Source: Vicinamibacteraceae bacterium (GTDB lineage: Bacteria; Acidobacteriota; Vicinamibacteria; Vicinamibacterales; UBA8438). From it: DNA of 64,000 nucleotides. This document shows positions 14,831 to 61,383 of the stretch, piece after piece; within the stretch, counting starts at the first letter, position 1, and every line of letters begins with the position of its first letter. Position numbers and translations under genes: made by a program. The notes below the pieces were generated by a model. It saw nothing but the letters and a program-made list of their open reading frames with translations. It searched no databases and was not told the origin of the DNA. The stretch is taken from contig JAAXGX010000197.1 of NCBI GenBank assembly GCA_012271165.1, positions 34,145 through 98,144 on the forward strand, in the 5' to 3' direction.

Positions 14831-15853
14831 GTGACGAAACGATGGCTCGTCTGGTGCGGTCCGCTTGCCTTGATTCCGGCGCTCGTGGCGTCGGTGGCCG
14901 TCCCGGCGGCCGCGCAGGCCCCGGCCGGCGCGGACTGGACCCTGCCCCGCACCGCGGACGGGCATCCCGATCTGCAGGGCGTGTGGGCGAACAACAACGT
15001 CACCCCGCTGGAGCGGCCGCCCGAGTGGGCCGATAAGGCGCGCCTGAGCGCGGAGGAGCTGGCGGCGCTGGAGGCGGCCGCGGCCGAGGCGACGGACCCC
15101 GGCCAGGACGCGCTCTTCGGCGATCAGCTCGTGCTGGCCGCCATCGCCGGCGAGCAGGCCACGTCGTACGATCCGACGACCGGCAACTACAATCAGTTCT
15201 GGGTCGTCGAGCGGGACTTCAACGACCGCACCTCGCTGGTGGTCGACCCGCCGGACGGCCGGATCCCGGCCCGCACGCCGGCGGCCGAGCGGCTCGTGGC
15301 CGAGCGGGCCGCGCACCGCGCCGCGCATCCGGCCGATACCTGGGAGGACGTGCCGCTGCAAGAGCGCTGCATCACGTACGGCGTGCCGCGGCTCGGCGCC
15401 GGCTACAACAGCTACTACCAGATCTTCCAGACCGCCGACCACGTGGTCTTCCTGATGGAGATGAACCACGACGCGCGGATCATCCCGCTCGACGGCCGGC
15501 CGCAACTCGACGCCGGGGTCCGGCAGTGGCACGGCGACTCGCGCGGCCGCTGGGAGGGCGACACGCTCGTGGTGGAGACGACCAACTACTCGCCGAAGAG
15601 CGACTTCAGGGGGGCGTCGGACAGCCTGCGCGTCGTCGAGCGGTTCACGCGGACGGGGCCCGACACGCTGGAGTACGCGGTCACCATCGACGACCCGACC
15701 ACCTGGATCCGGCCGTGGACCGCGTCAATCCCGCTGCTGCGCAGCGAGGACGCGCTCTACGAGTACGCCTGCCACGAGGGCAACTACGGGATGGAAGGGA
15801 TTCTCGCCGGCCACCGCGCCCAGGAGCGGGCGGCGGCCGCCGGCGAGCGGTAG
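14831..15853 (+). CDS. secreted protein, uncharacterised CHEGN-motif family (paralog 1 of 6, short subtype)
   Basis: The start is GTG after AAGGAGG. It has a signal peptide and the motifs PRTADGHPDLQGVW, RTSLVVDPPDGRIP, ERCI, ARIIPLDGRP, GDSRGRWEGDTLVVET and YEYACHEGNYG. Confidence 0.8.
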   Translation: MTKRWLVWCGPLALIPALVASVAVPAAAQAPAGADWTLPRTADGHPDLQGVWANNNVTPLERPPEWADKARLSAEELAALEAAAAEATDPGQDALFGDQLVLAAIAGEQATSYDPTTGNYNQFWVVERDFNDRTSLVVDPPDGRIPARTPAAERLVAERAAHRAAHPADTWEDVPLQERCITYGVPRLGAGYNSYYQIFQTADHVVFLMEMNHDARIIPLDGRPQLDAGVRQWHGDSRGRWEGDTLVVETTNYSPKSDFRGASDSLRVVERFTRTGPDTLEYAVTIDDPTTWIRPWTASIPLLRSEDALYEYACHEGNYGMEGILAGHRAQERAAAAGER

Positions 15854-15859
15854 CTTCCA

Positions 15860-15950
15860 TCAGACGGGGCTGCGCCCCGAGCCCCGGCGTCCGCTTGCGG
15901 GAACCCGTTCGCCCCGCTCCGCTCCCGAGGCGCGCTGTGCGCGCCTTTGC
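15860..15950 (-). repeat. GC-rich structured intergenic repeat (one unit, reverse orientation)
   Basis: The reverse complement reads gcaaaggcgcgcacagcgcgcctcgggagcggagcggggcgaacgggttcccgcaagcggacgccggggctcggggcgcagccccgtctga. Confidence 0.85.
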
Positions 15951-15954
15951 CGGG

Positions 15955-16875
15955 CTACTCGCCGCTGGCCTCGAGCTCGTCGACGATCACCTGGATGTTG
16001 CGCCGGACGCCCGCCGCGTTGGGCGCGTCGTAGTGCGCGTAGGCTGCCGGCAGCGCCCAGGCGCCGGCGATCTCGTCGACCGACCGGCCCGCGGCCCGGC
16101 CGTCCCGGACCACCTGCAGGAAGTCGCGGTTGAAGGCGGCCCACTCGTTCAGGTCGGCCCACGTCATCTGCGAGCTGTGGCCGGTGATGATGGTGTCGAT
16201 TCCCTCGATGTTGTCGTGCGCCCCCTGCAGCGTGTCGGGGATGGCGACGCCGCTGCCGCCGTTGGCGGCATCGAGGAACGGCACCCGCTGTCCCAGAAAG
16301 ACGTCGCCGGCGTGGAGCGTCCGCAGCGCGGGGAACGCGATCCAGGCGTCGCCGCCGGTGTGGCCGCGGCCGAAGTAGTAGAGGTCGACCTGGTCGTCGC
16401 CGCTGCCCAGCGACATCCGGTCCGAGAAGGTGGTCGTCGGCAGTCCGTGCCCGTTCGAAGCCCGGAACACGTTCGCCGGCGGCTCCGTCCGCCCGGTGTA
16501 GGGCCGCATCACCTCCATGTTGGCCTTCGTGTTCTCGTGGGTGACGACCTGCACCGTCTCCGCGAACGCCACGTTGCCGCTCACGTGGTCGTGGTGGCTG
16601 TGCGTGTTGATGAGCGTCGTCACCGGCTTGTCCGTCAGCTCCCGGATCTGCGCCAGGATCGGGTCGCCCCAGCCCGGGTTCTTCGTGTCGACGACCACGA
16701 CGCCGTCCGACCTGATGAACACGGCCGTGTTGCCGCCGCCGCCCTGGCCCCTGAGCACGTACAGGTTGTCCTGGAGCTGCTCGACCTGGATCTCCATGGC
16801 GTCCTGCGCGGCCACCACGGCGAGCGAGACGGTGCCGATCCCGATCAGCAGAGCGAGAACGATGCTGCGCTTCAT
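15955..16875 (-). CDS. secreted MBL-fold metallo-hydrolase
   Basis: The start MKRSIVLALL follows AGGAGG. It has the THSHHDH motif and GHTGGDAW. Confidence 0.85.
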   Translation of the reverse strand: MKRSIVLALLIGIGTVSLAVVAAQDAMEIQVEQLQDNLYVLRGQGGGGNTAVFIRSDGVVVVDTKNPGWGDPILAQIRELTDKPVTTLINTHSHHDHVSGNVAFAETVQVVTHENTKANMEVMRPYTGRTEPPANVFRASNGHGLPTTTFSDRMSLGSGDDQVDLYYFGRGHTGGDAWIAFPALRTLHAGDVFLGQRVPFLDAANGGSGVAIPDTLQGAHDNIEGIDTIITGHSSQMTWADLNEWAAFNRDFLQVVRDGRAAGRSVDEIAGAWALPAAYAHYDAPNAAGVRRNIQVIVDELEASGE

Positions 16876-17018
16876 GTCATGCCTCCTGCAGGGTATCGCC
16901 CTCCCAACGCCGGCTGCCGGCGCCCGGCCGGGCCCTGGGATCCGGGGCCTGTCATTTCCTGAAATTCCGGCGCAGTATATCAGGCAACCAGTCAACAGGC
17001 GCAGTCCATACGCGAGCG

Positions 17019-17645
17019 ATGTCGATCGGCAGGCTGGAGGCGATATTCCAACGGTCGGAGCGGGCACTGGCGCACGGCGTGCCGATCCGCAAGACGAGCG
17101 CCGGCATCTGGGTGCCGTCTCCGATCTCCATGATCGTCGACGTCGTCTCGGCGCTGAGAGAGATCGGATTGCTCGGCCCGGCGGCGGCCGGCGGGGCGGT
17201 CGTGGACGCCGGCATGGGCGACGGCCGGGTAACCGCCGTGGTTGCCCTGCGCGAGCCGTCGCAGCCCGTGTACGGCATCGAGCGCGACCCGGTGCTCCAC
17301 TCCCGGGCCGAGCAGAATCTGCGCCGGGCGCTGCGGATGTCCCGCGGCAGCCCCCGGGTGCATCCGGTCGAGGGCGACTACTGCGACGTCGCCACCTATG
17401 CCGCCTGCGGGCTCGACCTGCAGGCGGTGGGCGTCGTGGTCAACTATCCGGACGGCAACCAGGAGCGGCTGGCGCGCTTCGTCGCGGCGCACGCCCCCGA
17501 CGCCAGCCTGTGCCTGTTCACCCACGACCGCGACCTGGAGGTCCGCGAGCTGGTCCTGCGCACCGAGCGCGACCTGCCCGCGGACTACGGTCCGGACTGG
17601 CGGCTCTGCGTCTACCGCGGCCGCCCGGGCGACCCGCGGCGCTGA
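17019..17645 (+). CDS. putative class I SAM-dependent methyltransferase-like protein
   Basis: The 208-aa ORF has VVDAGMGDGR, which resembles motif I. The rest is unassigned. Confidence 0.45.
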   Translation: MSIGRLEAIFQRSERALAHGVPIRKTSAGIWVPSPISMIVDVVSALREIGLLGPAAAGGAVVDAGMGDGRVTAVVALREPSQPVYGIERDPVLHSRAEQNLRRALRMSRGSPRVHPVEGDYCDVATYAACGLDLQAVGVVVNYPDGNQERLARFVAAHAPDASLCLFTHDRDLEVRELVLRTERDLPADYGPDWRLCVYRGRPGDPRR

Positions 17646-17738
17646 CCCGCGGCGCGCGGCGGGCCGCCGAGCTTGCTTCCGACCGGCGTGGTGGGGGACT
17701 ATTGCTCTTTGTCGAAAAATCGATTGGGAGGACCGGAT

Positions 17739-18752
17739 ATGTACCGTCGATGCCACGTTGTGCTGGCGACCGCATTCGCGCTCGCCTGCCTTGTTCCCGG
17801 AGTCGCGGCCGGCCAGGTCGAGACGGAGCCGCGCAGCGGCTGGACCCCGCCGCGGACGCCCGAGGGCGTCCCGGATCTGCAGGGCGTCTTCACGTTCCGC
17901 ACCATCACGCCGATGCAGCGGCCGGCCCAGCTCGAGGGCCGGGTGACGCTGTCGGCCGAGGAGGCTGCCGCCTTCGAGGCGTCCGAGAACACGCGCCTCA
18001 ATCGGGACCTGTTCGACCCGATCGCGGGCGCGCCGAGCGCCGGCTACGCACCGCGGGCCGAGGGCGGCGTCCTGTCGTACAACGAGTTCTGGTACGAGCG
18101 GGGCGTCGAGCTGACGCGCGACAGGCGCACGTCCCTGATCGTCGATCCCGCCGACGGGCGCATTCCGTACACCGACGATACGCGCGAGAGTATCCGCGTC
18201 ACGCGCGCCAATCTGAGCGCCGGGTTCGCCGATTCGTATACCGACCGGAGCCTCGCCGACCGCTGCCTCATGGGCTTCAACTCGGGCCCGCCGATGGTGC
18301 CGAGCGCCTACAACAACAACGTCATGATTCTCCAGACGCCGGGCCAGGTGGTCATCTACAACGAGATGGTCCACAACGCCCGGATCATTCCGACCGACGG
18401 CAGCGCACACGGTGACGTGCGGCAGTGGGTGGGCGACTCGCGCGCGCGCTGGGAAGGCGACGTGCTCGTCATCGAGACGAAGAACTTTCTGCGCGAGACC
18501 GCCTTCCGCGGGTCGACGGCCGATACGCAACTGGTCGAGCGGCTGTGGCGGGTCGATCCGGACACCGTGCTGTACGAGTTCACCGTCGACGATCCGAACT
18601 CGTTCACGCGTCCGTGGACGGCGCTGTTCCCCCTGCGGCGGACCGACGGGCCGTTGTTCGAGTACGCCTGCCACGAGGGCAACTACGGCCTGGAAGGCAT
18701 TCTGGCCGGGGCGCGGAACAAGAACACCCAGGCCGTCGAGGGATCACGATAG
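17739..18752 (+). CDS. secreted protein, CHEGN-motif family (paralog 2 of 6, short subtype)
   Basis: The start MYRRCHVVLATAF follows GGGAGGA. It has the motifs PRTPEGVPDLQGVF, RTSLIVDPADGRIP, DRCL, ARIIPTDGS, GDSRARWEGDVLVIET and FEYACHEGNYG. Confidence 0.8.
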   Translation: MYRRCHVVLATAFALACLVPGVAAGQVETEPRSGWTPPRTPEGVPDLQGVFTFRTITPMQRPAQLEGRVTLSAEEAAAFEASENTRLNRDLFDPIAGAPSAGYAPRAEGGVLSYNEFWYERGVELTRDRRTSLIVDPADGRIPYTDDTRESIRVTRANLSAGFADSYTDRSLADRCLMGFNSGPPMVPSAYNNNVMILQTPGQVVIYNEMVHNARIIPTDGSAHGDVRQWVGDSRARWEGDVLVIETKNFLRETAFRGSTADTQLVERLWRVDPDTVLYEFTVDDPNSFTRPWTALFPLRRTDGPLFEYACHEGNYGLEGILAGARNKNTQAVEGSR

Positions 18753-20189: not shown

Positions 20190-21341
20190 ATGCTGATCGA
20201 ATGGACCGAGTTCGTCGACTTTCTGCGGACGCGCGTCCAGGAGCTCGCCGCCACCGAGCTGGACCAGGTGCGGTACGGCAGCGTGGACCTGGCCTTCCTG
20301 CTCACCCTGGTCGTCGCGGCGGCCACCATCCTCACCATGTTCCGCCTGGTGATTCGCCGCCGCAGCCACTCGCGGCACCATTCCGGCCATCTCATCGATT
20401 ACAAGCTGCAGCGCGGCCCGGTGGTGCGGGCGCTCTACCACCTGCCGAAGCTGATCCTGATCCTGGCGGTGGTGGTGCTGCTCGTGGCCGTCTCCGACCC
20501 CTTCCTGACCGCCACCGAGGAGATCGTGGGCGACGTGGAGTCGCGAGTGCGGGTCGACCTCGTCGACACGTCGCTGTCGATGGCCTGGGAGTTCCCCGAC
20601 ACGGGCCGGTCGCGGGCCGAGGTCGCGCGCGAGGCGCACCTGCAGTTTCTGGAAATGCGCCGCGAGAAGAACGATCGGGTGTCGCTGTGGATGTTCTCGT
20701 CCTATCCCTACATGGTGGACGACTTCATCCTCGACGACGAGATCTACTACTTCCAGGTGTTCGAGGCCCCGTACGTGACGGTCAGGCTGCTGGCGCCCCA
20801 GTTCCGGAGCACGCGTGACCAGATCTACGTCCCGCCGGACAAGGTGCGGATCATCCCGACCGAGGGGACGACCAACCTCGTCCGGGCGCTGCAGTCGATC
20901 GTGAGGCACTTCGACAGCGACGAGGCGAGCGCCGGCGGCGCCGCCAACCAGCACCGCGCCGTGCTCATCATCACGGACGCGGACGTGGACGAGGTGCCGC
21001 TCGCCGAGCTCGCGGCGCTGGCCCGGCGCAACATCGTGCCGTACATGATCTACATCAACGTCGGCGACACCGACCGCAGCAGCATTTCCGCGCCGGAGTC
21101 GCCCCCGCTGGTCGACACCATTCGCGAGTACGGCGGCGACTACTTCGACGTCACCGATCAGGACAGCCTGATCCGCGCCTACGAGGCCATCGACGAGCTC
21201 GAGGCGGTGCGCGTCGACCTGACGCATCGCGCCGTCAAGACGCCCATCTACTCCCGCTTCCTGCTCGTCAGCCTGGCGCTGCTCGTGGTCGGGATTCCGG
21301 CCGGCTTCCTGGCCGAGCTGCTGTGGGGCACGCATCCCTGA
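20190..21341 (+). CDS. membrane-anchored von Willebrand factor A-like protein (BatA-like)
   Basis: The 383-aa ORF has N- and C-terminal TM segments and a DTSLSM MIDAS-like motif. Confidence 0.65.
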   Translation: MLIEWTEFVDFLRTRVQELAATELDQVRYGSVDLAFLLTLVVAAATILTMFRLVIRRRSHSRHHSGHLIDYKLQRGPVVRALYHLPKLILILAVVVLLVAVSDPFLTATEEIVGDVESRVRVDLVDTSLSMAWEFPDTGRSRAEVAREAHLQFLEMRREKNDRVSLWMFSSYPYMVDDFILDDEIYYFQVFEAPYVTVRLLAPQFRSTRDQIYVPPDKVRIIPTEGTTNLVRALQSIVRHFDSDEASAGGAANQHRAVLIITDADVDEVPLAELAALARRNIVPYMIYINVGDTDRSSISAPESPPLVDTIREYGGDYFDVTDQDSLIRAYEAIDELEAVRVDLTHRAVKTPIYSRFLLVSLALLVVGIPAGFLAELLWGTHP

Positions 21342-21381: not shown

Positions 21382-21852
21382 ATGAAGGGACTGGAACGCG
21401 TCGGTCAGGCGGGGAGGTGGCAGATGGGGAGCAGGGCTGTCGCGGTATCGTGCGGAGCAATCGCCGTGGTCCTCGGGCTGGCGCTCGCGGGCACGAGCGC
21501 GCTGGCGCATCATATCGAGGTCAACGAGTTCGATCGGTCCAAGGCCGTTACGCTCACCGGCGAGGTCGTCCGGGTCGAGTGGATCAACCCGCACCCCTGG
21601 ATCCACATCAGCGTCGCCGGCGACGACGGCCGGGCAGAGCGCTGGATGGTCGAAGCCGCCGCGCCGATGAACCTCCTCCGCCGCGGGTTTTCCCCCGACT
21701 CGATCCGGCCCGGCACGCTCATTACCGTCGAGGGCTACCAGTCGAAGCACGGCACCCCGCTCGCGAGCGGCCACACGCTGACCTACGCGGACGGCAGCCG
21801 GTTCTACATCGGCTACCTGGGCCTCACCGGCACGGCGGAAGCCGGCAACTGA
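21382..21852 (+). CDS. DUF6152-like small secreted protein
   Basis: The signal peptide ends in ALAHH, followed by FDRSKAVTLTGEVVRVEWINPHPWI. An alternative start is at 21424. Confidence 0.65.
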   Translation: MKGLERVGQAGRWQMGSRAVAVSCGAIAVVLGLALAGTSALAHHIEVNEFDRSKAVTLTGEVVRVEWINPHPWIHISVAGDDGRAERWMVEAAAPMNLLRRGFSPDSIRPGTLITVEGYQSKHGTPLASGHTLTYADGSRFYIGYLGLTGTAEAGN

Positions 21853-23435: not shown

Positions 23436-23451
23436 TGGCACGGACGTTGCT
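23436..23451 (+). promoter_or_regulatory. sigma-54 (-24/-12) promoter P1
   Basis: TGGCACGgacgTTGCT fits the consensus TGGCACG-N4-TTGCW exactly. It lies 15 nt upstream of the conserved ATG at 23466. Confidence 0.75.
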
Positions 23452-23465
23452 ACGTAGGTGTGACG

Positions 23466-26107: not shown

Positions 26108-26194
26108 GTAGACTTCAGCGCTGGCCAGATATTGAACCCTGTTAACCGGACGAACCGCTACCGTATGATGCTCGGCGAAGTGACTCGCAGATGA

Positions 26195-26210
26195 TGGCGC
26201 GCCCTTTGCT
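26195..26210 (+). promoter_or_regulatory. sigma-54 (-24/-12) promoter P2
   Basis: TGGCGCGccctTTGCT has one mismatch to the consensus. Its spacing to the conserved ATG at 26225 is the same as for P1. Confidence 0.65.
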
Positions 26211-26224
26211 CGATGAGTGTGACG

Positions 26225-33518: not shown

Positions 33519-34871
33519 CTACTGCGCCGGGCGGCGAGCCGCGGCCTGGCCCTCCACGGTGTAGGTGAAGAAGCCGATCATCATCTCCTCCCACGTCTGG
33601 TCGCCCCAGCGAACCGTCGCGGTCGGGTCGGGATTCGCGCGGTTGGCCGCCGAGTTGTCGAAGTGCGCGCTGACGTGCATCTTCGACCCCCTGGGCAGCA
33701 GGAGCGGCTCGGCCAGCCAGTAGTCCGTCTGCCAGCCGAAGTCGAAGCGCGGCACGCGCAGGACGATCTCGGTCCGGCCGTCAGGGTAGGTGACCGTGTA
33801 GGTCATGTCCTTGCCGCGCAGGTGCATGTGCGGGTGCATCGTCCACACCCTGACGTCCGCGCTGAAGGTCGCCTCGGCCTCGACCTCGTGGTTCGCCGCG
33901 CCCGGCGGCAGCTCGAACACGGGGTTGAGGATCATGCCGGTGCGAATCTCGTGCGCGGGCGGCTGCTTCGCGAAGATGAGGCCCAGCTTCGAGCGGTCCA
34001 CGCCCGGCTCGCCGTCGGTCGTGTAGTGCATCTGGAAGACCAGCGTCGAGCCGGCCGGAATGCGCTTGGCGGTGCCGGGCAGGTAGACCGGCGCATCCTC
34101 GCCCACCGCCCAGTTGACCAGCATCGCGTCTCCGCCACCCACGGGACGCTGCCCGGCGCGTGCGGCCAGCGCCCGCAACGCCTGCGGGGACGGCCGCTGT
34201 CCCGCGGGCAGGATGGGCCGCACCGCTACCACCCCGGGCCGCGTATTCGGCTCCGGCTCCCGCACGTAGACGACGATGTGGTGGACGTGCGCGCGGTCGC
34301 CGGGGCGCGCCTCGCCCGCCTGCATCCAGCGGTCCTCGGTGAAGTTGGTGGGCACGTCGAAGTACTGGTACTCGACCGTGCCGGTAGCCGGCACCTCGTA
34401 GTCGACGGGCATCTCGAAGACCATGTCCGGGGTGCCGATCTGCCAGCCCTCGGTGAGCTCGGGCAGCGGCGGCAGATCCGCCGGATCGCCCTCGCGCGCC
34501 CCGCCCGTCACCCAGGCGGCGATGGTGTCGATCTCCGGCTGCATGAGGCTCAGGTCGTTGCGGAAGACGCCGTAGCGCCGGTCGGCGTGCCACGGCGGCA
34601 TCTCGCGCGTGGTCACCTTCTCGTGAATCGCGCGCGCCCAGGGTCGTGCCTCGCGGAACGTGATGAGCGACATCGGCGCCACCTCGCCCGGCCGATGGCA
34701 ACTGATGCACTTCCCGTAGAAGATCGGCGCGACGTCCCGGCTGAAGGTGGGGACGCCCGCGTTGTCAGCGGGGGCCTCCTGGGCGCTCGGATGTCCGCTG
34801 AGCGGACTCCCGCCCAGCCATATGCCGACGGCAGCAACGAAGACGCCGGCCCGAATCACGTTGCAGATCAT
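33519..34871 (-). CDS. heme-c motif + copper type II monooxygenase-like (PHM/DBH-fold) secreted protein
   Basis: The real start MICNVIRAG (after GGAGGAG) lies inside a 1090-aa shadow-extended ORF. It has CISCH, then HVHHIVVY, MHY, MHPHMHLRGKDM and a later Met (SKMHV). Confidence 0.6.
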   Translation of the reverse strand: MICNVIRAGVFVAAVGIWLGGSPLSGHPSAQEAPADNAGVPTFSRDVAPIFYGKCISCHRPGEVAPMSLITFREARPWARAIHEKVTTREMPPWHADRRYGVFRNDLSLMQPEIDTIAAWVTGGAREGDPADLPPLPELTEGWQIGTPDMVFEMPVDYEVPATGTVEYQYFDVPTNFTEDRWMQAGEARPGDRAHVHHIVVYVREPEPNTRPGVVAVRPILPAGQRPSPQALRALAARAGQRPVGGGDAMLVNWAVGEDAPVYLPGTAKRIPAGSTLVFQMHYTTDGEPGVDRSKLGLIFAKQPPAHEIRTGMILNPVFELPPGAANHEVEAEATFSADVRVWTMHPHMHLRGKDMTYTVTYPDGRTEIVLRVPRFDFGWQTDYWLAEPLLLPRGSKMHVSAHFDNSAANRANPDPTATVRWGDQTWEEMMIGFFTYTVEGQAAARRPAQ

Positions 34872-35006
34872 GTCTCCTCCCGTCCGCCGCGTACCTGCCA
34901 ACGATACCACGCAGCACTCGCGCCCCCGGCGGGCCACCGAACTCCGGGCCGAGGTGCGGCGGGTATACAATCGGGCCTGTTCCGTCTCACAGAGCAAGGA
35001 GGACTC

Positions 35007-36005
35007 ATGGCCCGCAACCTGGTCTTGGCCGGCGTGCTGGCGCTGCTGCCCGCGGGTGCGCTCGCTCAACCGGACGCCGCGACGTTCCGCACGCCATGGG
35101 GCGACCCGGACCTGCAGCATGTCTGGACCAGCTCCACGCTGACGCCGCTGGAGCGGCCGGACGAGCTGGCGGGGAGGACGGCGTTGACGGCGGAGGAAGC
35201 GGCCGCATCGACGCAGTTGGAGCTGCGGCGCATCGACGGCGATCAGCGCGTGGGAGAGGGCCGGGGAGACCGGCAGGAGGACACGCCGGACGGGCGGACG
35301 GACGTCGGCCGCGCGTACAACGAGTTCTGGCGCGAGCGGGGCCGGATGCTGCGGCAGACGTCGCTGATCGTCGATCCGCCGGATGGACGCATCCCGTACA
35401 GGTCGGGCGGGCGGCCCGCCGAGTCCCCGTATCACGGCGGGGTGGGCGAGTACCCGGCCGGCCCGGAGACCCGCGGTCTGGCCGAGCGGTGCATCGCCTG
35501 GGGCAGCGCCGGGCCGCCGATGCAGCCGACCACCTACAACAGCAACTTCCAGTTGCTGCAGACTCCCGACCACGTGGCGATCGTCAACGAGATGATCCAC
35601 GACGTGCGCATCGTGCCGCTGGACGGCCGGCCGCACCTCGCGTCGGGCGTCCGCCAGTTGCTGGGCGATTCGCGGGGCCACTGGGAGGGTGAGACCCTGG
35701 TGGTCGTCACGGCCAACTTCACCGACAAGACGCGCTTTCGCGGATCCAGCCCGGACCTGCACCTGGTGGAGCGGTTCACACGGGTTGCTGCCGATACGCT
35801 GCTGTACGAGTACACCGTCGAGGACGAATCCGCCTGGACGCGGCCCTGGACCGCCGCCTGGCCGCTCAGCAGCCTGCGGTCGCAGCTCGGGGCGGAGCCG
35901 GGCAGCGTTGGCGCGCACCTGTTCGAGTATGCCTGCCACGAGGGCAACTACGGCATGACGAACCTGCTGGCCGGCGCCCGCGCCCTGGAACCCTCGCGCG
36001 ACTGA
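35007..36005 (+). CDS. secreted protein, CHEGN-motif family (paralog 3 of 6, short subtype)
   Basis: The start MARNLVLAGVLALL follows AAGGAGGA. It has the motifs TPWGDPDLQHVW, QTSLIVDPPDGRIP, ERCI, VRIVPLDGRPH, GDSRGHWEGETLVVVT and FEYACHEGNYG. Confidence 0.8.
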   Translation: MARNLVLAGVLALLPAGALAQPDAATFRTPWGDPDLQHVWTSSTLTPLERPDELAGRTALTAEEAAASTQLELRRIDGDQRVGEGRGDRQEDTPDGRTDVGRAYNEFWRERGRMLRQTSLIVDPPDGRIPYRSGGRPAESPYHGGVGEYPAGPETRGLAERCIAWGSAGPPMQPTTYNSNFQLLQTPDHVAIVNEMIHDVRIVPLDGRPHLASGVRQLLGDSRGHWEGETLVVVTANFTDKTRFRGSSPDLHLVERFTRVAADTLLYEYTVEDESAWTRPWTAAWPLSSLRSQLGAEPGSVGAHLFEYACHEGNYGMTNLLAGARALEPSRD

Positions 36006-40179: not shown

Positions 40180-41883
40180 TCAGTCGCGCAGGGCGAAGGT
40201 CGACAGCGAGTGGCCGGAGATGATGGCCACGTACTGCCGGCCGTCCACCTCGTAGGTCACCGGGCCGTTGATGATCTGGCTGCCGAGGCTGGCCTTCCAC
40301 AGCAGGTCGCCGGTGCGGGCGTCCAGGGCCTGGAAGTAGCCGGACCGGGCGCCTGTGAACAGCAGGTCCGACGCCGTCGTGAGGATGCCGCTGCGGATGA
40401 CGTCCGTCATCTCGAACCGCCACTGCTCCTCGCCGGTCAGCGGATCCAGCGCGAGCACGGCCCCGCGGCCCCCGACCTCGGTCCAGTTGTTGATCGGACC
40501 GCGGGTCAGCGTGGGCGGGACGGGCGCATCCGGTACGGGCTGCCAGGTTCTCGGAAAGTCGAGGCGGCGGCCGGTGAAGGACCGGCCCGGGACGTAGACC
40601 TGCGGCGCGGCATCGAAGACCGTGGCGTAGTCCTCCCAGGCCGGGACGTAAAACAGCTCCGTCCGCGGGCTGTAGGATGGCGAGTACCAGTTCGTCGCGC
40701 CCGATATGCCCGGATACGTGGGCTCCCCGGCGGGCTGCGGGGTCTCGACCGGACGCCCGCTGTCGTCCAGCGCCTCGGCCCAGTTGACCGACACGAACGG
40801 GCGGCCGGTCAGAAAGCGGCCCGTCGCCCGATCCAGCACGTAGTAGAAGCCGTTGCGGTTGGCGAACAGCAGCACCTTGAAGAGCGTGTCGTTGCGGGTG
40901 ATGTCCGCCAGCACCGGAATCTGGACCGCGTCGTAGTCGTACGGGTCGTCCGGCGTGAACTGGAAGTGCCAGCGCAGCTCCCCGGTGTCGGCGTCGAGCG
41001 CCACCACCGAGCAGGAGTAGAGGTTGTCGCCCGGCCGCTGCGCCCGGTTGTAGTCGGGACCCGGGTTGCCGGTGCCCCAGTAGATCAGGTTCAGCTCCGG
41101 GTCGTACGAGCCCGTGAGCCAGGCTGCGGCCCCGCCGTGCATCCAGGCCTCCGGGTCGCAGTAGGTCTCCGGATTGGGCGGACACGGCTCCCAGGTCTCG
41201 TGACCCGGCTCGCCGGGTCCCGGAATCGTGTAGAAGCGCCAGACCTCCTCGCCGGTCTCGGCGTCGAGCGCCGCGATGAACCCGCGGATGCCCTGGTCGC
41301 CGCCCGTGGAGCCGACGATGATCTTGCCCTCGACGGCCAGCGGCGCCAGCGTGAAGGCGTAGGCCAGCGTCATGTCCGCCACCCGGGTGTTCCATATCTC
41401 CACGCCCGTCGTCGCGTCGATCGCCACGACGTGGGCATCCAGCGTGGCCATGAACACCTTGTCGCCGAGCACCGCCACGCCGCGGTTGTTCGCCCCGCAG
41501 CAGGCGAGGTGGTTGGGCGACGTCGGATAGCGGTAGATCCAGAACACGCGTCCGGTCCGGGCGTCGAGGGCGACGATGTCGTTCGGCCGCTGCGTCAGGT
41601 ACATCACCCCGTCGACCACGATCGGCGTCGTCTGCCACGGCCCCGCCACGGCGGTCTGGTACACCCACTGCAGCGCGAGGCCGCCGACGTTGTCGGGGTT
41701 GATCTGGTCGAGCTCGCTGTAGCGTTGGCCGAAGTAGTCGCCCGAGTAGGTCAGCCAGTTCTGCGGCTCGTCCGCCGTGCCGCGCAGGCGGTCGAAGGTC
41801 ACCTGCGCCGACAGCGGAGCGGACAGCAGGCCGACGAGAACCGTCCCGAGCACCGCGCGCCGGACCATCGCTCCTGAGGTCAT
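40180..41883 (-). CDS. PQQ-dependent alcohol dehydrogenase (methanol/ethanol family quinoprotein), periplasmic
   Basis: The start is MTSGAMVRR with a signal peptide. It has the vicinal Cys pair LACCGANNRG (41497-41502) and DPYDYDAV (D-Y-D at 40930-40938). Its ATG overlaps the stop of the upstream gene (ATGA). Confidence 0.85.
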   Translation of the reverse strand: MTSGAMVRRAVLGTVLVGLLSAPLSAQVTFDRLRGTADEPQNWLTYSGDYFGQRYSELDQINPDNVGGLALQWVYQTAVAGPWQTTPIVVDGVMYLTQRPNDIVALDARTGRVFWIYRYPTSPNHLACCGANNRGVAVLGDKVFMATLDAHVVAIDATTGVEIWNTRVADMTLAYAFTLAPLAVEGKIIVGSTGGDQGIRGFIAALDAETGEEVWRFYTIPGPGEPGHETWEPCPPNPETYCDPEAWMHGGAAAWLTGSYDPELNLIYWGTGNPGPDYNRAQRPGDNLYSCSVVALDADTGELRWHFQFTPDDPYDYDAVQIPVLADITRNDTLFKVLLFANRNGFYYVLDRATGRFLTGRPFVSVNWAEALDDSGRPVETPQPAGEPTYPGISGATNWYSPSYSPRTELFYVPAWEDYATVFDAAPQVYVPGRSFTGRRLDFPRTWQPVPDAPVPPTLTRGPINNWTEVGGRGAVLALDPLTGEEQWRFEMTDVIRSGILTTASDLLFTGARSGYFQALDARTGDLLWKASLGSQIINGPVTYEVDGRQYVAIISGHSLSTFALRD

Positions 41884-42968
41884 TGTCTTCCGTCCCCCGC
41901 CGCCTCGGTGGCCATCCGCTCGAGGTTGCGGTTGATCTCGAGGATGTGGCGGATGTCGTGGTTGCCCTCGTGGCAGCCGTACTCGTACAGCGGCCCCTCG
42001 ATCCTGACCATCGGCAGCTCCACCGTCCACCGGCTCACCCACGTCGTCGGGTCGCTGACCGTGAACTCGTAGTGAATCTGGTCGGGGCTGGCCGTGGGCG
42101 TGAAGCGCTCCACGACGTGCAGGGCGCCCGTGGCGCCGCGGAAGCGCCGCCGCTCGGCGTAGTTGCGCGTCTCGATCACCAGCGTGTCGCCTTCCCAGCG
42201 CCCGCGCGAGTCGCCGGGGAACTGGCGGATCCGGTCGGAGATGTGCGGGCGCCCGTCGAGCGGGACGATGCGCGGCGGGTTGTTGGCCATCTCGGTGTGC
42301 ACCACGATGTGGTCCGGGGTCTGGAAGATCTGGTGGATGTCGTTGTACGACGGCGGCATCATCGGCGGTCCCTCGTGCCCCCAGGTGATGCACCGCTCGC
42401 TGTGCGGCCGGGTCTCGTGGCTGTCGAACACCTCGCGCATCGCGCGAGCGTGCGCCGCCCGCGCGGCGCCCTGCGGCGTCAGGGCGGGCATCCGGCCGTT
42501 GCGCGGGTAGGTGATCAGCGATGTCCGGCGGGTCGACAGGCCCTTCGGCACCGGCGTGCGCAGCCAGATCTCGTTGTCGTAGTGGATGTGGTGGCGTTCC
42601 TCCCGCGTGCGGTTGCCCTGGAACTTGTAGCGCTCGAGCTCCTCCCGGTCCTCGAGCTCGATGAGGGTGAGGATTTCGCGCGCGGAGGGATCGACGCCCG
42701 CTGCCGTGAGCGTGTCCTGCAGGTAGGCCCACTCCTCCTCGGTGAAGAACTCCTTGTCGGCCAGATGATCGGGCCGCTCGAGCGGCGTGAAGGTCTGGGT
42801 CGTCCAGTACCCCTGCAGATCGGGTCGGCCGTCGGGGGTGCGCTGGAACGCCTGCTCCGCTGTCCCGTCCGGGGCGGGCTGCGCCTGATTCTGCGCGGAT
42901 GCCGGGACCGGCGCCAGGAGCCCGACGGCGACGACTGCTGCCAGCGCGATACGAGCGGCGTGGCTCAT
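41880..42968 (-). CDS. secreted protein, CHEGN-motif family (paralog 4 of 6, long subtype)
   Basis: The start MSHAARIALAAV follows AGGGAGGA. It has the motifs RTPDGRPDLQGYW, RTSLITYPRNGRMP, ERCI, PRIVPLDGRPH, GDSRGRWEGDTLVIET and YEYGCHEGNHDIRHILEINRNLER. Confidence 0.85.
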   Translation of the reverse strand: MSHAARIALAAVVAVGLLAPVPASAQNQAQPAPDGTAEQAFQRTPDGRPDLQGYWTTQTFTPLERPDHLADKEFFTEEEWAYLQDTLTAAGVDPSAREILTLIELEDREELERYKFQGNRTREERHHIHYDNEIWLRTPVPKGLSTRRTSLITYPRNGRMPALTPQGAARAAHARAMREVFDSHETRPHSERCITWGHEGPPMMPPSYNDIHQIFQTPDHIVVHTEMANNPPRIVPLDGRPHISDRIRQFPGDSRGRWEGDTLVIETRNYAERRRFRGATGALHVVERFTPTASPDQIHYEFTVSDPTTWVSRWTVELPMVRIEGPLYEYGCHEGNHDIRHILEINRNLERMATEAAGDGRQ

Positions 42969-43079: not shown

Positions 43080-44162
43080 CTACTTGCCTTCGGCGGCGGC
43101 GGCGGCGGCGGCAGCAGCGGCGGCCTCGGCCGCCATCCGCTCGAGGTTGCGGTTGATCTCCTGGATGTGGCGGATGTCGTGGTTGCCCTCGTGGCAGCCG
43201 TACTCGTACATCGGCCCCTCGGTCCTGATCATCGGGACTTCGGCGCTCCACGAGCTTTGCCACGTCGTCGGATCGTCGATGGTGAACTCGTAGTGGATCT
43301 GGTCCTCGGCGACGCGCGTGAAGCGCTCCACGACGTGCCGGAACTGGTTCGAGCCGCGGTAGTTCCGGCGCGCGATGAAGTTCTTCGACTCGACCACCAG
43401 CGTGTCGCCCTCCCACCAGCCGCGCGAGTCGCCGTTGTACTGGCGAATGTCGTCCGCGATGTGCGGGCGCCCGTCGAGCGGGATGATGCGGGGCAGGCCG
43501 GTGCCCAGCTCGGTGAAGACGACGACGTGGTCCTTCGTCTGGAAGATCTGGTGGATGTCGTTGTACGACGGCGGCAGTATCGGCGGCCCCTCGTGCCGCC
43601 ACGCGATGCAGCGCTCCGGCAGCGGCCGGGTCTCGTAGCTGTCGAAAACGTTGCGCATCGCGGCCTCGTGGGCGATGCGCGCGGCGCCCGCGGGCGTCAG
43701 GGGCGGAATCCGGCCGTTGGGCGGGTCCGTGATCAGCGACGTCCGGCGGCTCGACAGGCCCTTGGGCACGGGCGTGCGCAGCCAGACCTGGTTGTCGTAG
43801 TGCACGTACGACGCGTCGCGGTTCTCCTGATACAGCGCCTCTTCGCGCTCCGCGTCGTCCTCGATGGCGATGGCGTCACGCCGCAGCGGATCGACGCCTT
43901 CGGCCGTGAGCTGCCGCTGCAGCTCGGCGACCTCCTCCTCCGTGAAGAACGCCTTGTCGCCGAGGTGCTCCGGACGCTCGACGGGCGTGAAGGTCTGAGT
44001 CGTCCAGTAGCCTTGCATGTCCGGGTGGCCGTCCGGCGTGCGCGGCATGGTCCACGCCGCGGACGCGTCAGTCTCGCCCTCGACCTGCGCGGCCGCGGAG
44101 ACGGGCGCCAGCAGCGTGATGACGACGAGCGCTGCCGATGCAGCAAGAGTGGAGTGCCTCAT
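43080..44162 (-). CDS. secreted protein, CHEGN-motif family (paralog 5 of 6, long subtype, poly-Ala tail)
   Basis: The start MRHSTLAASAAL follows GGGGAGGA. It has the same motif set as paralog 4. The C-terminus is EAAAAAAAAAAAEGK. Confidence 0.85.
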   Translation of the reverse strand: MRHSTLAASAALVVITLLAPVSAAAQVEGETDASAAWTMPRTPDGHPDMQGYWTTQTFTPVERPEHLGDKAFFTEEEVAELQRQLTAEGVDPLRRDAIAIEDDAEREEALYQENRDASYVHYDNQVWLRTPVPKGLSSRRTSLITDPPNGRIPPLTPAGAARIAHEAAMRNVFDSYETRPLPERCIAWRHEGPPILPPSYNDIHQIFQTKDHVVVFTELGTGLPRIIPLDGRPHIADDIRQYNGDSRGWWEGDTLVVESKNFIARRNYRGSNQFRHVVERFTRVAEDQIHYEFTIDDPTTWQSSWSAEVPMIRTEGPMYEYGCHEGNHDIRHIQEINRNLERMAAEAAAAAAAAAAAEGK

Positions 44163-44270: not shown

Positions 44271-45338
44271 CTACCTCGACGCCGCGGCTGCCGCCGCCTC
44301 GGCCGCCTGGCGCTCGAGGTTGCGGTTGATCTCGAGGATGTGGCGGATGTCGTGGTTGCCCTCGTGGCAGCCGTACTCGTACATCGGCCCCTCGGTCCTG
44401 ATCATCGGGACCTCGGCGCTCCACCGGCTGGTCCACGTGGTCGGGTCGTCGACGGTGACCTCGTACCGGATCGTATCCTCGGCGACGCGCGTGAAGCGCT
44501 CCACGACGTGTCGGAACTGGTTCGAGCCGCGGTAGTTCCGGCGCGCGATGAAGTTCTTCGACTCGACGACCAGCGTGTCGCCTTCCCAGCGCGCGCGCGA
44601 GCTGCCGCCGAACTGGCGAACGGTCTCGGGCAGGTGCGGGCGGTCGTCGAGCGGGATGATGCGCGGCAGGCCGGTCCCTATCTCCGTGAACAGCACGATG
44701 TGGTCCGGGGTCTGGAAGATCTGGTGGATGTCGTTGTAGGCGGGGGGCAGCATCGGCGGTCCCTCGTGGGCCCAGATGATGCACCGCTCCATCAGCGGGC
44801 GCGTCTCGTAGCCGTCGAACACGTTGCGCATCGCGCGCTCGTGCGCCACGCGGGCGGCGCCCTGGGGCGTCATGGGCGGGAACCGGCCGTTGCGCGGATA
44901 GGTGATCAGCGAGGTCCGCCGGCTCGACAGGCCCTTCGGCACCGGCGTTCGCAGCCACACCTGGTTGTCGTAATGGACGTACGACGCCTCGCGGTTCTCC
45001 TGGTAGAGCGCCTCCTCGCGGACGTTCGGATCCCCGATCTCGACGGCGTCGCGCCGCAGGGGATCGACGCCCTCCGCCGTGAGCTGCCGCTGCAGCAGCG
45101 CCAGCTCCTCGTCCGAGAAGAATTCCTGATCGGCCAGCCGCTCGGGCCGCTCGACCGGCGTGAACGTCTGGGTCGTCCAGTAGCCCTGCATGTCGGGCTG
45201 GCCGTCCGGGGTACGCGGCAGCGTCCACTCGGCGCCGCCGTCCGCGGCCTCCTGGGCCTGCGCCGCCCCCACGGCGGCGACCGATGTCAACGCTGCGACG
45301 ACGACTACGGTGACAAGCGCGGCAAGGCTGCGGTGCAT
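44271..45338 (-). CDS. secreted protein, CHEGN-motif family (paralog 6 of 6, long subtype)
   Basis: The start MHRSLAALVTVV follows AGGGAGGG. It has the same motif set as paralogs 4 and 5. Confidence 0.85.
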   Translation of the reverse strand: MHRSLAALVTVVVVAALTSVAAVGAAQAQEAADGGAEWTLPRTPDGQPDMQGYWTTQTFTPVERPERLADQEFFSDEELALLQRQLTAEGVDPLRRDAVEIGDPNVREEALYQENREASYVHYDNQVWLRTPVPKGLSSRRTSLITYPRNGRFPPMTPQGAARVAHERAMRNVFDGYETRPLMERCIIWAHEGPPMLPPAYNDIHQIFQTPDHIVLFTEIGTGLPRIIPLDDRPHLPETVRQFGGSSRARWEGDTLVVESKNFIARRNYRGSNQFRHVVERFTRVAEDTIRYEVTVDDPTTWTSRWSAEVPMIRTEGPMYEYGCHEGNHDIRHILEINRNLERQAAEAAAAAASR

Positions 45339-45429: not shown

Positions 45430-47460
45430 TTACCCCTGCGGCAGCGCGAACGCCACGAGGGAGGCGTCCGGTCCCGCGCCCGTGGCGATGACGATGAACT
45501 GGCGGCCGGACCGGGTGACGTAGGTCATCGGGTTCCCGCTCGTCCGGAACTCCGTGGGCGCGCGATGGATCTCGCGGCCGGTGGCCGCGTCGAACGCGTA
45601 CAGGTAGCGCTCGCCGCCGCCGATGAAGACGATCCCGCTCGCGGTCGACATCGGCCCGTTGTTGCCCGGCGTGCCGAGACGCGCGGGCAGCTCGGCGTCC
45701 CGCAGCAGCGGATGGGCCCGAATGATCGGGCTGCCCTCGCCGAACGGCACCTTCCAGGCAATCTCGCCCCGGTGCAGATCGATGGCCACGAGGTTGGCGT
45801 AGGGCGGCTTGATCATCGGGATGGCGCCGAGACGGCTCCGCGCGGCCGGCACCTCGCCGGCCAGGCCGCGGAAGATCCCGCCCGACGCGCCCCAGGCGCA
45901 GTTGTTCGTGTAGGCGACGTCCACGTCGGGCAGATCGGGATCCGTCGCGCAGACCTGATTCGGCGACACCCCCTCGGACGACCGCACGACGAGCAGGCCG
46001 AGATCCTCGATGAACGTCGCGCCGCCCCAGTTCGCGCCGCCCGACTCGCGCGGGCGCATCAGCGTGCCCTGCAGGCTCGGCGGCGTGAACAGCGGCCCGA
46101 GCCGGAACTGCTGCATCTGCTCGATCGCCAGCGCGTGCACCTCGGGGGTCAGGTCGTTGGCGTCGTCCAGCGACGTGCCCTGGCCGGCGAACGGCGGCGG
46201 CCGGGTGGGGAAGGGCTGGGTCGGCCACGGAACCTCCCCCGGCACGTCGGTCTCGGTGTCGACCGGACGCTCCTCGATCGGCCACACCGGCTCGCCCGTG
46301 ACCCGGTCGAAGACGTACGTGAAGCCCTGCTTCGATACCTCGGCCACCGCCTCGATGGTGCGCCCGTCGACCGTGATCGTCACCACGTTCGGGGGCGAGG
46401 TGAAATCGTAGTCCCAGAGCCCGTGATGGACGCCCTGGAAGTGCCACAGCCGCTCGCCCGTGCGGGCGTCGAGGCACAGGAGCGACTCGGCGAACAGGTT
46501 CGCCCCCAGCCGGCGGCCGCCCCAGTAGTCGCCGCTCGGCGTGCTCGTCGGCACGTACAGCAGGCCTCGCTCCTCGTCGAGCGACATCAGCCCCCACACG
46601 TTGGCGTGGCCCGTGAAGCGCCACGACTGATCCTCCCAGGTGTCGGCGCCGAACTCGTCGTTCGACTGCGGCACCGTGTAGAACGCCCACCGCCGCTCGC
46701 CGGTATGCACGTCGAAGGCCTGCACGGACCCGGGCGTATCGAAGCGGTGCTGGATGCGGTCGGGCACGCGGCTGCCGACGATGACCAGATCCTCGAAGAC
46801 GACCGGCGGCGACGTCTGGTCGAACTCGTCGTGGCTGACCTCGTTGGGGAAGCCCTCGGTCAGGGCGACCTCGCCGCCGTCGCCGAAGCTCGTGATCAGG
46901 TCGCCGCTGCGCGCGTCGAGCGCGTAGAGGCTCACGCGGCTGTTGATGAAGACGCGCATGTCGTCACCCTCGCCGTGCACGGCGACGCCGCGGTGCTTGT
47001 AGCCGCCGGGGCTGGCGCCCGCGGCGCCGGTTTCGTAGGCGCGCGGGTCGAAGGCCCACAGCTCCGCCCCCGTCTCGGCGTCCAGCGCCACCACCCGGGT
47101 GTACATGGTGGAGAGGTACAGGACGCCGTCGATCATCAGCGGGGTCGCCTCGAAGCTGCCCGGGCGGGTGCCGTACTCGGACAGCGGCAGCTCGTTCGGC
47201 TCCCACTCCCAGACGATCTCGAGCTGGTCGACGTTGGCCGCCGTGATCTGGTCCGCCGGCGAGAACTTGGTGTGCGCCTGATCGGCGCCGACGTACGGCC
47301 ACTCGATCGTCGAATCGGGGGCCTGCGCCGCGGCTGGCGCGCCGGCGGCCGCCACGAGCACGGTCGCGAGCACCGTCGCGCGGACTCTGCTCGTCCGGCT
47401 GCGCCTCCGCGTGCTTGCGGCGGGGGTCCCCCTCACTTCGATGCTGGCTCGCAGTGACAT
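45430..47460 (-). CDS. PQQ-dependent dehydrogenase, glucose/quinate-dehydrogenase-like, periplasmic
   Basis: The 676-aa ORF has an Arg-rich signal and the motifs HRGVA, GANLFAESLLCLDARTGERLWHFQGVHHGLWDYDF and GGANWGG. Confidence 0.85.
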   Translation of the reverse strand: MSLRASIEVRGTPAASTRRRSRTSRVRATVLATVLVAAAGAPAAAQAPDSTIEWPYVGADQAHTKFSPADQITAANVDQLEIVWEWEPNELPLSEYGTRPGSFEATPLMIDGVLYLSTMYTRVVALDAETGAELWAFDPRAYETGAAGASPGGYKHRGVAVHGEGDDMRVFINSRVSLYALDARSGDLITSFGDGGEVALTEGFPNEVSHDEFDQTSPPVVFEDLVIVGSRVPDRIQHRFDTPGSVQAFDVHTGERRWAFYTVPQSNDEFGADTWEDQSWRFTGHANVWGLMSLDEERGLLYVPTSTPSGDYWGGRRLGANLFAESLLCLDARTGERLWHFQGVHHGLWDYDFTSPPNVVTITVDGRTIEAVAEVSKQGFTYVFDRVTGEPVWPIEERPVDTETDVPGEVPWPTQPFPTRPPPFAGQGTSLDDANDLTPEVHALAIEQMQQFRLGPLFTPPSLQGTLMRPRESGGANWGGATFIEDLGLLVVRSSEGVSPNQVCATDPDLPDVDVAYTNNCAWGASGGIFRGLAGEVPAARSRLGAIPMIKPPYANLVAIDLHRGEIAWKVPFGEGSPIIRAHPLLRDAELPARLGTPGNNGPMSTASGIVFIGGGERYLYAFDAATGREIHRAPTEFRTSGNPMTYVTRSGRQFIVIATGAGPDASLVAFALPQG

Positions 47461-54959: not shown

Positions 54960-54984
54960 AGACAGCCGATTGTCGGAGGCACCC

Positions 54985-55560: not shown

Positions 55561-55844
55561 GCGGTCTCGCCCGAGCGGGAGTGGCTCCGGCAACTCGAAC
55601 GCGGTGACGCAGGCTGTCAGCGACAGCTTGGCCAACCGGCGGCCGAAGATCATTGGCCGCCAGACGTCGCACCAATACCGCACCCGTGCCACACAGGGGC
55701 GGGCCTTGGCCCGTCGCGGGCTGGCCATGTCGACACCACACAACTGAAGTGGTAGGTTTGCCGTACGGCACGCTCGGCGGATGTCTCACCCGGATCGGCG
55801 GCGGCGGAGCCTGCGGGAACCGGCAAGTCCAACGGGAGGGTGAC

Positions 55845-58919: not shown

Positions 58920-58945
58920 TCGCCGCTCGCAAGGGTGAGTTGCAG

Positions 58946-61355: not shown

Positions 61356-61383
61356 ACGCGGCAAGGATTCGGAGCTGCGACAG

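Follow-up and report, generated by a model that had tools for sequence, protein, structure and literature searches.

A very large family of exported proteins with a predicted calycin-type barrel, and its conserved genomic partner DUF6152, seen from an acidobacterial locus

What is the protein family that is encoded six times within 64 kb of an acidobacterial genome? We analysed a 64,000-nucleotide stretch from a Vicinamibacteraceae bacterium (assembly GCA_012271165.1, contig JAAXGX010000197.1, positions 34,145 to 98,144 of the forward strand), hereafter the window, whose first letter is position 1 in all coordinates below. A preliminary description of the window had reported six secreted paralogues that share a C-terminal CHEGN motif and have no recognisable domain. 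It proposed a family expanded for substrate scavenging, in which the terminal Cys, His and Glu residues could be a metal or active site. We find that the proteins belong to a new, very large family whose predicted fold is of a known structural kind, the calycin barrels, and which is part of a conserved, uncharacterised gene module. The conserved genomic partner of the family is the small exported protein DUF6152. The idea of an exported, expanded and unnamed family held, whereas that of a family-wide centre in CHEGN did not.

The six open reading frames (ORFs) are all present where they had been placed. Paralogues 1 (14831..15853, 340 amino acids (aa)), 2 (17739..18752, 337 aa) and 3 (35007..36005, 332 aa) lie on the plus strand, and paralogues 4 (41880..42968, 362 aa), 5 (43080..44162, 360 aa) and 6 (44271..45338, 355 aa) on the minus strand. 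They align end to end, with 41-47% identity to paralogue 1 and 68 invariant columns, and match the family profile at E = 1e-119 to 1e-136 (448 bits for paralogue 1), far beyond chance. A scan of all six reading frames of the window with this profile recovered these six members and no further ones. A protein identical to paralogue 1 is called as a gene on public metagenome contigs (European Nucleotide Archive, ENA), and independent gene calls on those contigs agree with the starts of paralogues 1 and 2. The alignment also separates the two forms described before, a short one (copies 1-3) and a long one with an Ala-rich tail (copies 4-6).

Every motif of the ordered set in the preliminary description occurs, in order, in all six copies, provided that a few positions are loosened: copy 3 has Q-H for Q-G, copy 4 has VERFTP, and copy 6 has GSSRA and PLDD. 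Signal peptides were found in all six by a heuristic check, each with one or two Lys/Arg residues, a hydrophobic stretch (12-residue Kyte-Doolittle maximum of 2.5-2.9) and an Ala-rich cleavage region. By the same check the leaders are Sec-type, with neither a lipobox nor a twin-arginine motif in any of the six. The mature proteins contain exactly two Cys residues, in ERC and CHEGN, and no copy contains a CxxCH motif.

Beyond the window the family comprises three subtypes. All six copies here are A-type, the subtype that carries CHEGN. B-type proteins are about 280 aa long, lack the RTSLIVDPPDGRIP insert, have KCYLPGVPR at the first Cys and end in E-[FY]-K-C-V-E-F. C-type proteins are about 245-300 aa long and end in C-L-E-N, C-L-E-G-N or similar, as in WP_290010862.1 of Novosphingobium humi. 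A profile of the six copies retrieved 23,610 representatives of 50%-identity clusters at E <= 1e-3, 12,322 at 1e-10 and 2,515 at 1e-30. These clusters come mainly from Acidobacteriota, with some from Gemmatimonadota and Proteobacteria. In a set of one-genome-per-species contigs, at least 595 loci encode relatives; most belong to Vicinamibacterales, Bryobacterales and Terriglobia, and a few to Gemmatimonadales, Gammaproteobacteria and Phenylobacterium. Distant members are also found on plasmids of cultured Sphingomonadales. Three family-bearing, Acidobacteria-like contigs are titled as metagenome-assembled genomes of 'uncultured Bifidobacteriaceae' (L006), 'Klebsiella sp.' (L015) and 'Bifidobacterium sp.' (L017), which are apparent taxonomic mislabels.

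None of the curated resources that we searched names the family, in keeping with the earlier statement that no domain could be recognised. Against Pfam-A and NCBIfam, the six paralogues gave noise only (E >= 0.03, all under the cut-off), 139 diverse members scanned at E <= 10 gave no recurrent family, and B-type and C-type members gave no match. A search of PDB sequences at E <= 10 with a single sequence and two profiles returned no match. Models of the lipocalin and fatty acid-binding protein (FABP) families (PF00061, PF08212, PF13924 and others) matched none of the 139 members. The close homologues number at least 8000 proteins; none has a Pfam domain, and any name given in the source is 'hypothetical protein'. 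The family thus neither maps to a characterised enzyme family nor has motifs that are confined to this genome.

We modelled paralogue 1 with AlphaFold on an alignment of the 139 diverse sequences, which gave a predicted local distance difference test score (pLDDT) of 89.4 and a predicted template modelling score (pTM) of 0.85. An earlier model on a 40-sequence alignment had a pLDDT of 72 and borderline Foldseek matches only. In the newer model, a strand at residues 50-53 carries a G-x-W signature and is followed by an insert of about 140 residues, up to about residue 190, which is predicted to be mostly helical or extended and contains RTSLIVDPPDGRIP and ERC. Residues 195-305 are predicted to form a barrel of eight antiparallel strands, and a C-terminal helix (316-336) would begin inside CHEGN. 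The barrel alone, about 115 of 340 residues, matches SAHS, CRABP and FABP structures in a Foldseek search of the PDB (probability 1.0, E = 1.9e-4 to 1e-2, target TM-score 0.45-0.55), which found no solved chain similar to the whole protein. The lipocalin family is defined by a G-x-W signature on the first strand, in structurally conserved region 1 (SCR1). Here G50 is conserved in 98% and W52 in 89%, and G-x-W is also present in the B and C subtypes. The predicted combination of a barrel, of 8-10 strands in lipocalins and FABPs, with a C-terminal helix is found as well. These features point to a barrel of the calycin (lipocalin/FABP-like) type, with weak resemblance to the known structures.

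Which residues does so large a family keep? In the A-type, the invariant or near-invariant positions are G143, R179, C180, E210, R216, G235, E270, D288, E311, C314, H315, E316 and N318. We counted residues in 538 aligned superfamily members of all subtypes, and the Cys pair in the 481 alignable ones. Both Cys were kept in 479 of the 481, and the Glu that follows the second Cys (E316) in 466 members, while the His of CHEGN (H315) was present in 368 of 538. The sister subtypes ending in C-V-E-F or C-L-E-N keep both Cys and the Glu and lack the His and the Asn; in subtypes that retain both Cys, V, L, N, Q, E, A, T or D stands in place of the His. CHEGN is thus the signature of one subtype and not a universal Cys/His/Glu metal or active site, as far as sequence conservation can tell. 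Since the Cys pair is kept where the His is lost, a structural disulfide fits better than a Cys-His centre, and we infer that the two invariant Cys, at positions 180 and 314 and thus 134 residues apart, form a disulfide. A second near-universal set, E210 (517 of 538), R216 (531), E270 (530), D288 (525) and W241 (527), lies in the barrel of the model. A cofactor motif of the topaquinone (TPQ) kind at 'Y-E-Y' was considered and rejected, as copies 2 and 3 have Phe in place of its first Tyr, and B-type proteins have Leu or Met there.

We examined the neighbourhoods of family genes at 80 loci, in which genes were called and clustered over the family gene and up to 10 kb on each side. The one strongly conserved partner to emerge, DUF6152 (PF19649), was missing from the neighbour list of the preliminary description. 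At up to 500 bp from a family gene we counted 20 DUF6152 genes, or 19.4 per 100 kb; farther out the density is at most 0.8 per 100 kb. About 25% of loci have a DUF6152 gene at this close range. Most of these genes are downstream on the same strand, often with gaps of -3 to 50 nt, and many overlap the family gene. The order B-type, A-type, DUF6152 occurs in at least 10 loci of four phylum-level groups, with carriers in Bryobacterales, Terriglobia, Gemmatimonadales, Vicinamibacterales and Gammaproteobacteria. Of two contexts sampled in a reverse search that started from DUF6152, one shows this same run and the other a non-adjacent arrangement of a family gene, a VWA-like gene and DUF6152. C-type genes adjoin DUF6152 in three sampled contexts and in three Sphingomonadales plasmid loci, and in a gammaproteobacterial genome a single 379-aa ORF joins a DUF6152 domain to a C-type family domain. 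DUF6152 is therefore the conserved genomic partner of the family.

The window contains one DUF6152 gene, at 21424..21852 on the plus strand (142 aa from the publicly called start; the ORF extends from 21382), which matches PF19649 with 94 bits (cut-off 27, E = 6e-27). It lies in the run around copies 1 and 2, which reads SGNH hydrolase, copy 1, metallo-beta-lactamase (MBL)-fold protein on the minus strand, a 208-aa unknown protein, copy 2, amidohydrolase, VWA-like protein, DUF6152 and sigma-54 activator. Copy 2 heads the co-oriented part of this run with the amidohydrolase, the VWA-like gene and DUF6152. The secreted MBL-fold protein (15955..16875, minus strand, Lactamase_B E = 1.7e-15) separates copies 1 and 2, and the same order of family gene, MBL and family gene recurs in relatives' loci L001 and L085. 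The VWA-like protein (20190..21341, plus strand, 383 aa) is membrane-anchored, stands between copy 2 and DUF6152 and has weak VWA_2 and BatA matches. Since a marine contig (L085/L086) retains the order copy, MBL, copy, VWA-like and DUF6152, the DUF6152 gene of the window is linked to copy 2. Across the family of DUF6152 proteins the invariant residues are Ala|His-His at the predicted cleavage site, an Asp, an Asn-Pro-His, a Trp and a Glu. The mature DUF6152 protein is thus predicted to begin with His-His.

Tandem family genes are common. Clustering counted 164 copies at the 80 loci, with up to 11 in a 20-kb locus, and profile-based classification assigned 111 copies to the A-type and 26 to the B-type. 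Some neighbours other than DUF6152 also become more frequent close to family genes. From the nearest distance bin outwards, pairs of DUF6644 membrane proteins number 4.8, 2.0, 0.7 and 0 per 100 kb. The frequency of a 160-aa protein that weakly matches cytochrome c' and has a C-terminal CxxCH likewise falls with distance. The DUF6644 genes form adjacent pairs beside the gene for the 160-aa protein; each DUF6644 protein has one invariant His (H32) and a G-R-W-I motif at its C-terminus, and the arrangement resembles a small membrane anchor with a periplasmic cytochrome. Such pairs were seen at L084 (Novosphingobium humi plasmid NZ_CP103870.1), L055, L059, L065, L066, L081 and L094. DUF6644 was rejected as a relative of CopD (hhalign probability 0.2% against E. 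coli YebZ). The window contains no DUF6644 gene and no B-type copy.

Fusions were found as well. One secreted protein (P0166) has a cytochrome c'-like domain fused to an A-type domain without a leader of its own. A gene-calling artefact was considered for this single contig; the extended ORF has a signal peptide and the family part has none, and the fusion looks genuine. In another protein, CxxCH and a squalene-cyclase-like domain are fused to the family domain, and in P0184 a Lipocalin_5 match lies in an extra C-terminal domain, outside the family domain.

The receptor and dehydrogenase neighbours are less frequent. A TonB-type receptor is directly adjacent in 6 of 80 loci (7.5%; about 5.8 per 100 kb, against 0-1.8 farther out) and in two of the three Sphingomonadales plasmid loci, in one case within a tauD/ssuD organosulfur island. 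This island (L094, Sphingobium sp. TomTYG65 plasmid pTomTYG65a, 292192-310644) has two pairs of family gene and DUF6152, two DUF6644 genes and a TonB-dependent receptor, together with tauD, a sulfonate-binding protein, an alkanesulfonate monooxygenase, a rhodanese, luciferase-type monooxygenases and a peroxiredoxin; it is a possible lead to a substrate class. Pyrroloquinoline quinone (PQQ) dehydrogenases are directly adjacent in about 6 of 80 loci, a modest excess over the farther bins. MBL genes occur in 6-7 of 80 loci at a frequency that does not decay with distance, SGNH hydrolases in none of the 80, and amidohydrolases are missing from 77.

Within the window, Pfam confirmed the SGNH, MBL, amidohydrolase, TonB-type receptor and PQQ dehydrogenase neighbours listed before. 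The 'Cu-monooxygenase-like' neighbour fared less well. This gene (33519..34910, minus strand, divergent from copy 3) encodes a protein with an N-terminal CISCH haem motif and weak similarity to the copper type II monooxygenase C-terminal domain, Cu2_monoox_C (E = 0.04), for which one homologue reaches the cut-off. Its relatives occur in 10-11 of 80 loci without decay by distance. Homologues at L036:4435-5802, L074:2605-4050 and L033:13153-14553 belong to no curated family, and the gene is often followed by an unknown gene of 300-350 aa with weak PKD-like matches.

Copies 4-6 lie in a minus-strand run of PQQ dehydrogenase (45430..47460, Pfam PQQ E = 9e-184), copies 6, 5 and 4, a second PQQ dehydrogenase and a CitMHS transporter, with gaps of 91-111 nt. 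The second dehydrogenase (40180..41883, minus strand) is of the methanol/ethanol family (Pfam PQQ E = 2e-89; TIGR03075 540 bits, cut-off 480). The TGA of copy 4 overlaps a possible ATG of this gene (ATGA), and the two would be co-transcribed and possibly translationally coupled. No PQQ gene lies within 10 kb of the orthologues nearest to copies 4-6 (64-78% identity), and the arrangement is local. A specific conserved link to PQQ dehydrogenases is further weakened by the small excess of six loci and by the presence of four such genes in the window.

Three of these four dehydrogenases (40180-41883, 45430-47460 and 59331-61355) have the D-Y-D motif that marks lanthanide-dependent PQQ dehydrogenases; the motif is missing from the fourth (61601-63370). 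Against TIGR04528 ('acido-empty-quinoprotein group A'), the 40180 gene reaches 503 bits, under the cut-off of 650. A second envelope cluster (54258-63370) combines a HupE/UreJ-type metal permease (54258-54959), a TonB-type outer-membrane barrel protein (55653-58919) and the PQQ dehydrogenases at 59331-61355 and 61601-63370, and may be a case of metal uptake linked to quinoproteins. A gene with DUF222 and an HNH endonuclease (36289-38139, minus strand), between copy 3 and the CitMHS/PQQ operon, may be a mobile or selfish element. A gene for SelB, the selenocysteine-specific elongation factor (10491-12425, plus strand), lies about 700 bp upstream of the cluster of SGNH hydrolase and copy 1.

The sigma-54 activator downstream of DUF6152 (21912-23435) is followed by two AAA_15/AAA_21 ATPases (23460-25175 and 26213-28663), each with an unknown ORF after it (25130-26107 and 28663-29610). 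A -24/-12 motif precedes each ATPase gene, as an exact TGGCACGGACGTTGCT at 23436-23451 and as a one-mismatch copy at 26195-26210. The ATPases match the PADLOC models NsnB, PDC-M55A, HEC-03B and AriA, and the region 21912-29610 may encode a two-gene defence system that has been duplicated and is controlled by sigma-54. Control of the family genes by sigma-54 was rejected, as good -24/-12 motifs were found only before the AAA ATPase genes.

What, then, might the family do? The reading to which we lean, tentatively and in the knowledge that it could well be wrong, is that the family protein is the subunit that processes the ligand in a multi-component system of the periplasm, and that it acts with DUF6152. 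In the model, the charged set E210, R216, E270, D288 and E316, with W241, would form a closed polar pocket distinct from any Cys-His centre. This pocket would bind a small molecule and process it by acid-base or metal-assisted chemistry, while the disulfide would link the beginning of the C-terminal helix with the segment that precedes the barrel. The protein would work in a complex with DUF6152, a putative metal-carrying small exported protein. Complete modules would add the B-type protein, two DUF6644 membrane proteins and a cytochrome c'-like protein, and would then probably be redox-linked periplasmic systems. The six copies of the window may be diversified 'solo' paralogues, which share their operons with genes for secreted hydrolases and PQQ dehydrogenases and would presumably act on one common pool of small molecules. 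Our confidence is highest for the disulfide and falls through processing in the pocket and the metal-bearing complex with DUF6152 to the wiring by cytochromes and membrane proteins.

Several observations weigh against this reading. Lipocalin and FABP-type barrels are usually binders and rarely enzymes, and no cofactor or catalytic motif is recognisable in the family. For as many as 85 of the 111 A-type copies, the 20-kb locus contains no B-type gene, DUF6152 adjoins only a minority of A-type copies, and the window itself has one DUF6152 gene for six A-type copies. Neighbours other than DUF6152 vary strongly between loci, and the fusions to haem proteins are known from one cluster each. The His-His of DUF6152 is probably a metal site, judging by the invariant His-His, Asp and Asn-Pro-His and by these alone; profile comparison rejected DUF6152 as a relative of CusF (0.8% probability) or CopC (1.7%). 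A literature search on CHEGN, DUF6152, DUF6644 and PF19649 found no relevant paper, the matches to CHEGN being surnames or noise.

A passive periplasmic carrier is the strongest alternative, and one that we regard as somewhat less probable. Here the barrel would ferry a hydrophobic or amphipathic molecule between TonB-type receptors, periplasmic enzymes and the inner membrane, and the paralogues would differ in cargo. FABPs, Blc and YceI would be its models, and a lipid, an alcohol, an alkyl sulfate or sulfonate, an isoprenoid or a cofactor its candidate cargo. The only fold matches are ligand-binding barrels of the intracellular lipid-binding protein (iLBP)/FABP kind, one member is fused to a Lipocalin_5 domain, and the many conserved Arg residues would fit anionic head groups. 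The neighbours are also suitable, with TonB-type receptors beside family genes and, in the window, secreted esterase/hydrolase-type proteins and PQQ alcohol dehydrogenases. However, the receptor association is weak in absolute terms, and carriers of this kind are normally very poorly conserved, whereas a charged set is fixed here over at least 23,000 clusters. Because of this, and because the tight operons of A-type, B-type and DUF6152 genes and the cytochrome fusions look more like an enzyme complex, we slightly prefer a processing role.

An extended form of the ligand-processing reading is more speculative, and we think it improbable, though worth stating. The A-type and B-type proteins, DUF6152, the paired DUF6644 proteins and the cytochrome c'-like protein would together make up an undescribed periplasmic metallo-redox system that is spread across phyla. 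In this system the metal subunit, of a histidine-brace-like kind, would be DUF6152, and the substrate subunit would be the lipocalin-like family protein, massively expanded in Acidobacteriota as in the window. DUF6644 and the cytochrome would serve to exchange electrons with the membrane. Substrate scavenging alongside PQQ and TonB genes, as first proposed, is plausible but weak.

That the two Cys and the CHEGN His carry a redox or metal centre is unlikely, and clearly more so than a passive carrier. Such a centre could take the form of a Sco-like Cys2His copper site, a redox disulfide or haem held through a single C-H, and would make the protein an electron carrier or metallochaperone for the nearby PQQ dehydrogenases and haem or copper proteins. 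Within the A-type all three residues are invariant, a gene for cytochrome c is missing from the minus-strand PQQ operon, and the start of a PQQ dehydrogenase is overlapped by copy 4. Cytochrome c'-like proteins are fused or adjacent to family members, the haem-c/Cu-monooxygenase-like gene recurs by family arrays, and the partner DUF6152 resembles a metal binder. The loss of the His from subtypes that keep both Cys speaks against such a centre, however, as do the wide spacing of the Cys on a barrel instead of a thioredoxin-like fold and the lack of CxxCH in every copy. Exported Cys pairs are normally oxidised to disulfides. Nor does the genomic context hold up, with a haem/Cu-monooxygenase-like neighbour that shows no distance decay and near orthologues of copies 4-6 that have no PQQ neighbours.

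It is very improbable that the family is a protein-binding regulator of the adjoining SGNH, MBL and amidohydrolase proteins, whether as a calycin-type inhibitor, as a chaperone or as an immunity protein, in the manner of barrel-shaped metalloprotease inhibitors: secreted hydrolases do flank copies 1 and 2, the order of family gene, MBL and family gene is kept in relatives, and the conserved mature N-terminal PRTPDGxPDLQGxW resembles the 'trunk' at the N-terminus of these inhibitors, but the hydrolases are rare or show no decay at the 80 loci, inhibitors rarely retain buried charged residues across so large a family, and the pairing with DUF6152 would be left unexplained.

With about 23,600 clusters, this is among the larger families that have no Pfam or NCBIfam model, solved structure or paper. 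Acidobacteriota of soil and sea carry it abundantly, at times with several copies per 20 kb. The family can now be defined by its three subtypes, its Cys pair, its invariant charged set and a barrel predicted to be of the calycin type. It has a strongly conserved partner in DUF6152, and looser links to DUF6644, the cytochrome c'-like protein, TonB-type receptors and PQQ dehydrogenases. Cultured carriers (Novosphingobium humi, Croceibacterium atlanticum and Sphingobium sp.) make genetics and biochemistry feasible. If the family does belong to a new periplasmic enzyme or metal-handling system, this would annotate tens of thousands of 'hypothetical' genes and bear on small-molecule processing in the cell envelope of Acidobacteriota.

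How does the family compare with known systems? With c-type cytochromes, of which Euglenozoa have single-cysteine (XXXCH) forms, it shares a C-H dipeptide in an exported protein; unlike them, it has no CxxCH, its sister subtypes do not keep the His and its predicted fold is a beta-barrel. The Sco-type copper chaperone carries CxxxC and a distal His on a thioredoxin-like fold, unlike the family, in which Cys 180 and 314 are placed on a predicted barrel.

The closest parallels to DUF6152 are copper binders. CopC binds copper through an N-terminal His that is exposed by cleavage. YcnI likewise binds copper through an N-terminal His exposed by cleavage (PMC8424229). DUF6152 resembles both in its predicted cleavage-exposed N-terminal His, which is followed by further invariant His and Asp residues, and differs from CopC (E. 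coli YobA) and CusF by the low profile probabilities given above.

In gene arrangement the family recalls the YceI/YceJ-type pair, in which a periplasmic lipocalin-like, isoprenoid-binding protein is encoded beside a small cytochrome b561 membrane protein. Here too an exported barrel is encoded beside small four-helix membrane proteins with an invariant His (DUF6644) and a cytochrome. The likeness is one of gene arrangement, and only a minority of loci, to which this window does not belong, have the pairing with DUF6644; haem binding is not known for DUF6644.

Lipocalins and iLBPs (FABP/CRABP, SAHS and Blc) are closest in predicted structure. The family shares with them a barrel with a C-terminal helix, G-x-W on the first strand and one Cys pair, and with the bacterial lipocalins export to the periplasm. 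Unlike them, it has the long insert after the first strand, a fixed charged set and the operon pairing with DUF6152, and it matches no sequence model of theirs; the structural match, with a target TM-score of about 0.5, covers about 115 of 340 residues. Some lipocalin folds are enzymes, among them violaxanthin de-epoxidase, allene oxide cyclase and lipocalin-type prostaglandin D synthase. The family has no sequence match or specific structural match to these enzymes, which lack a DUF6152-like partner. They nevertheless combine a barrel, a few conserved acid-base residues and a hydrophobic substrate, and this is the chemistry that we propose for the family.

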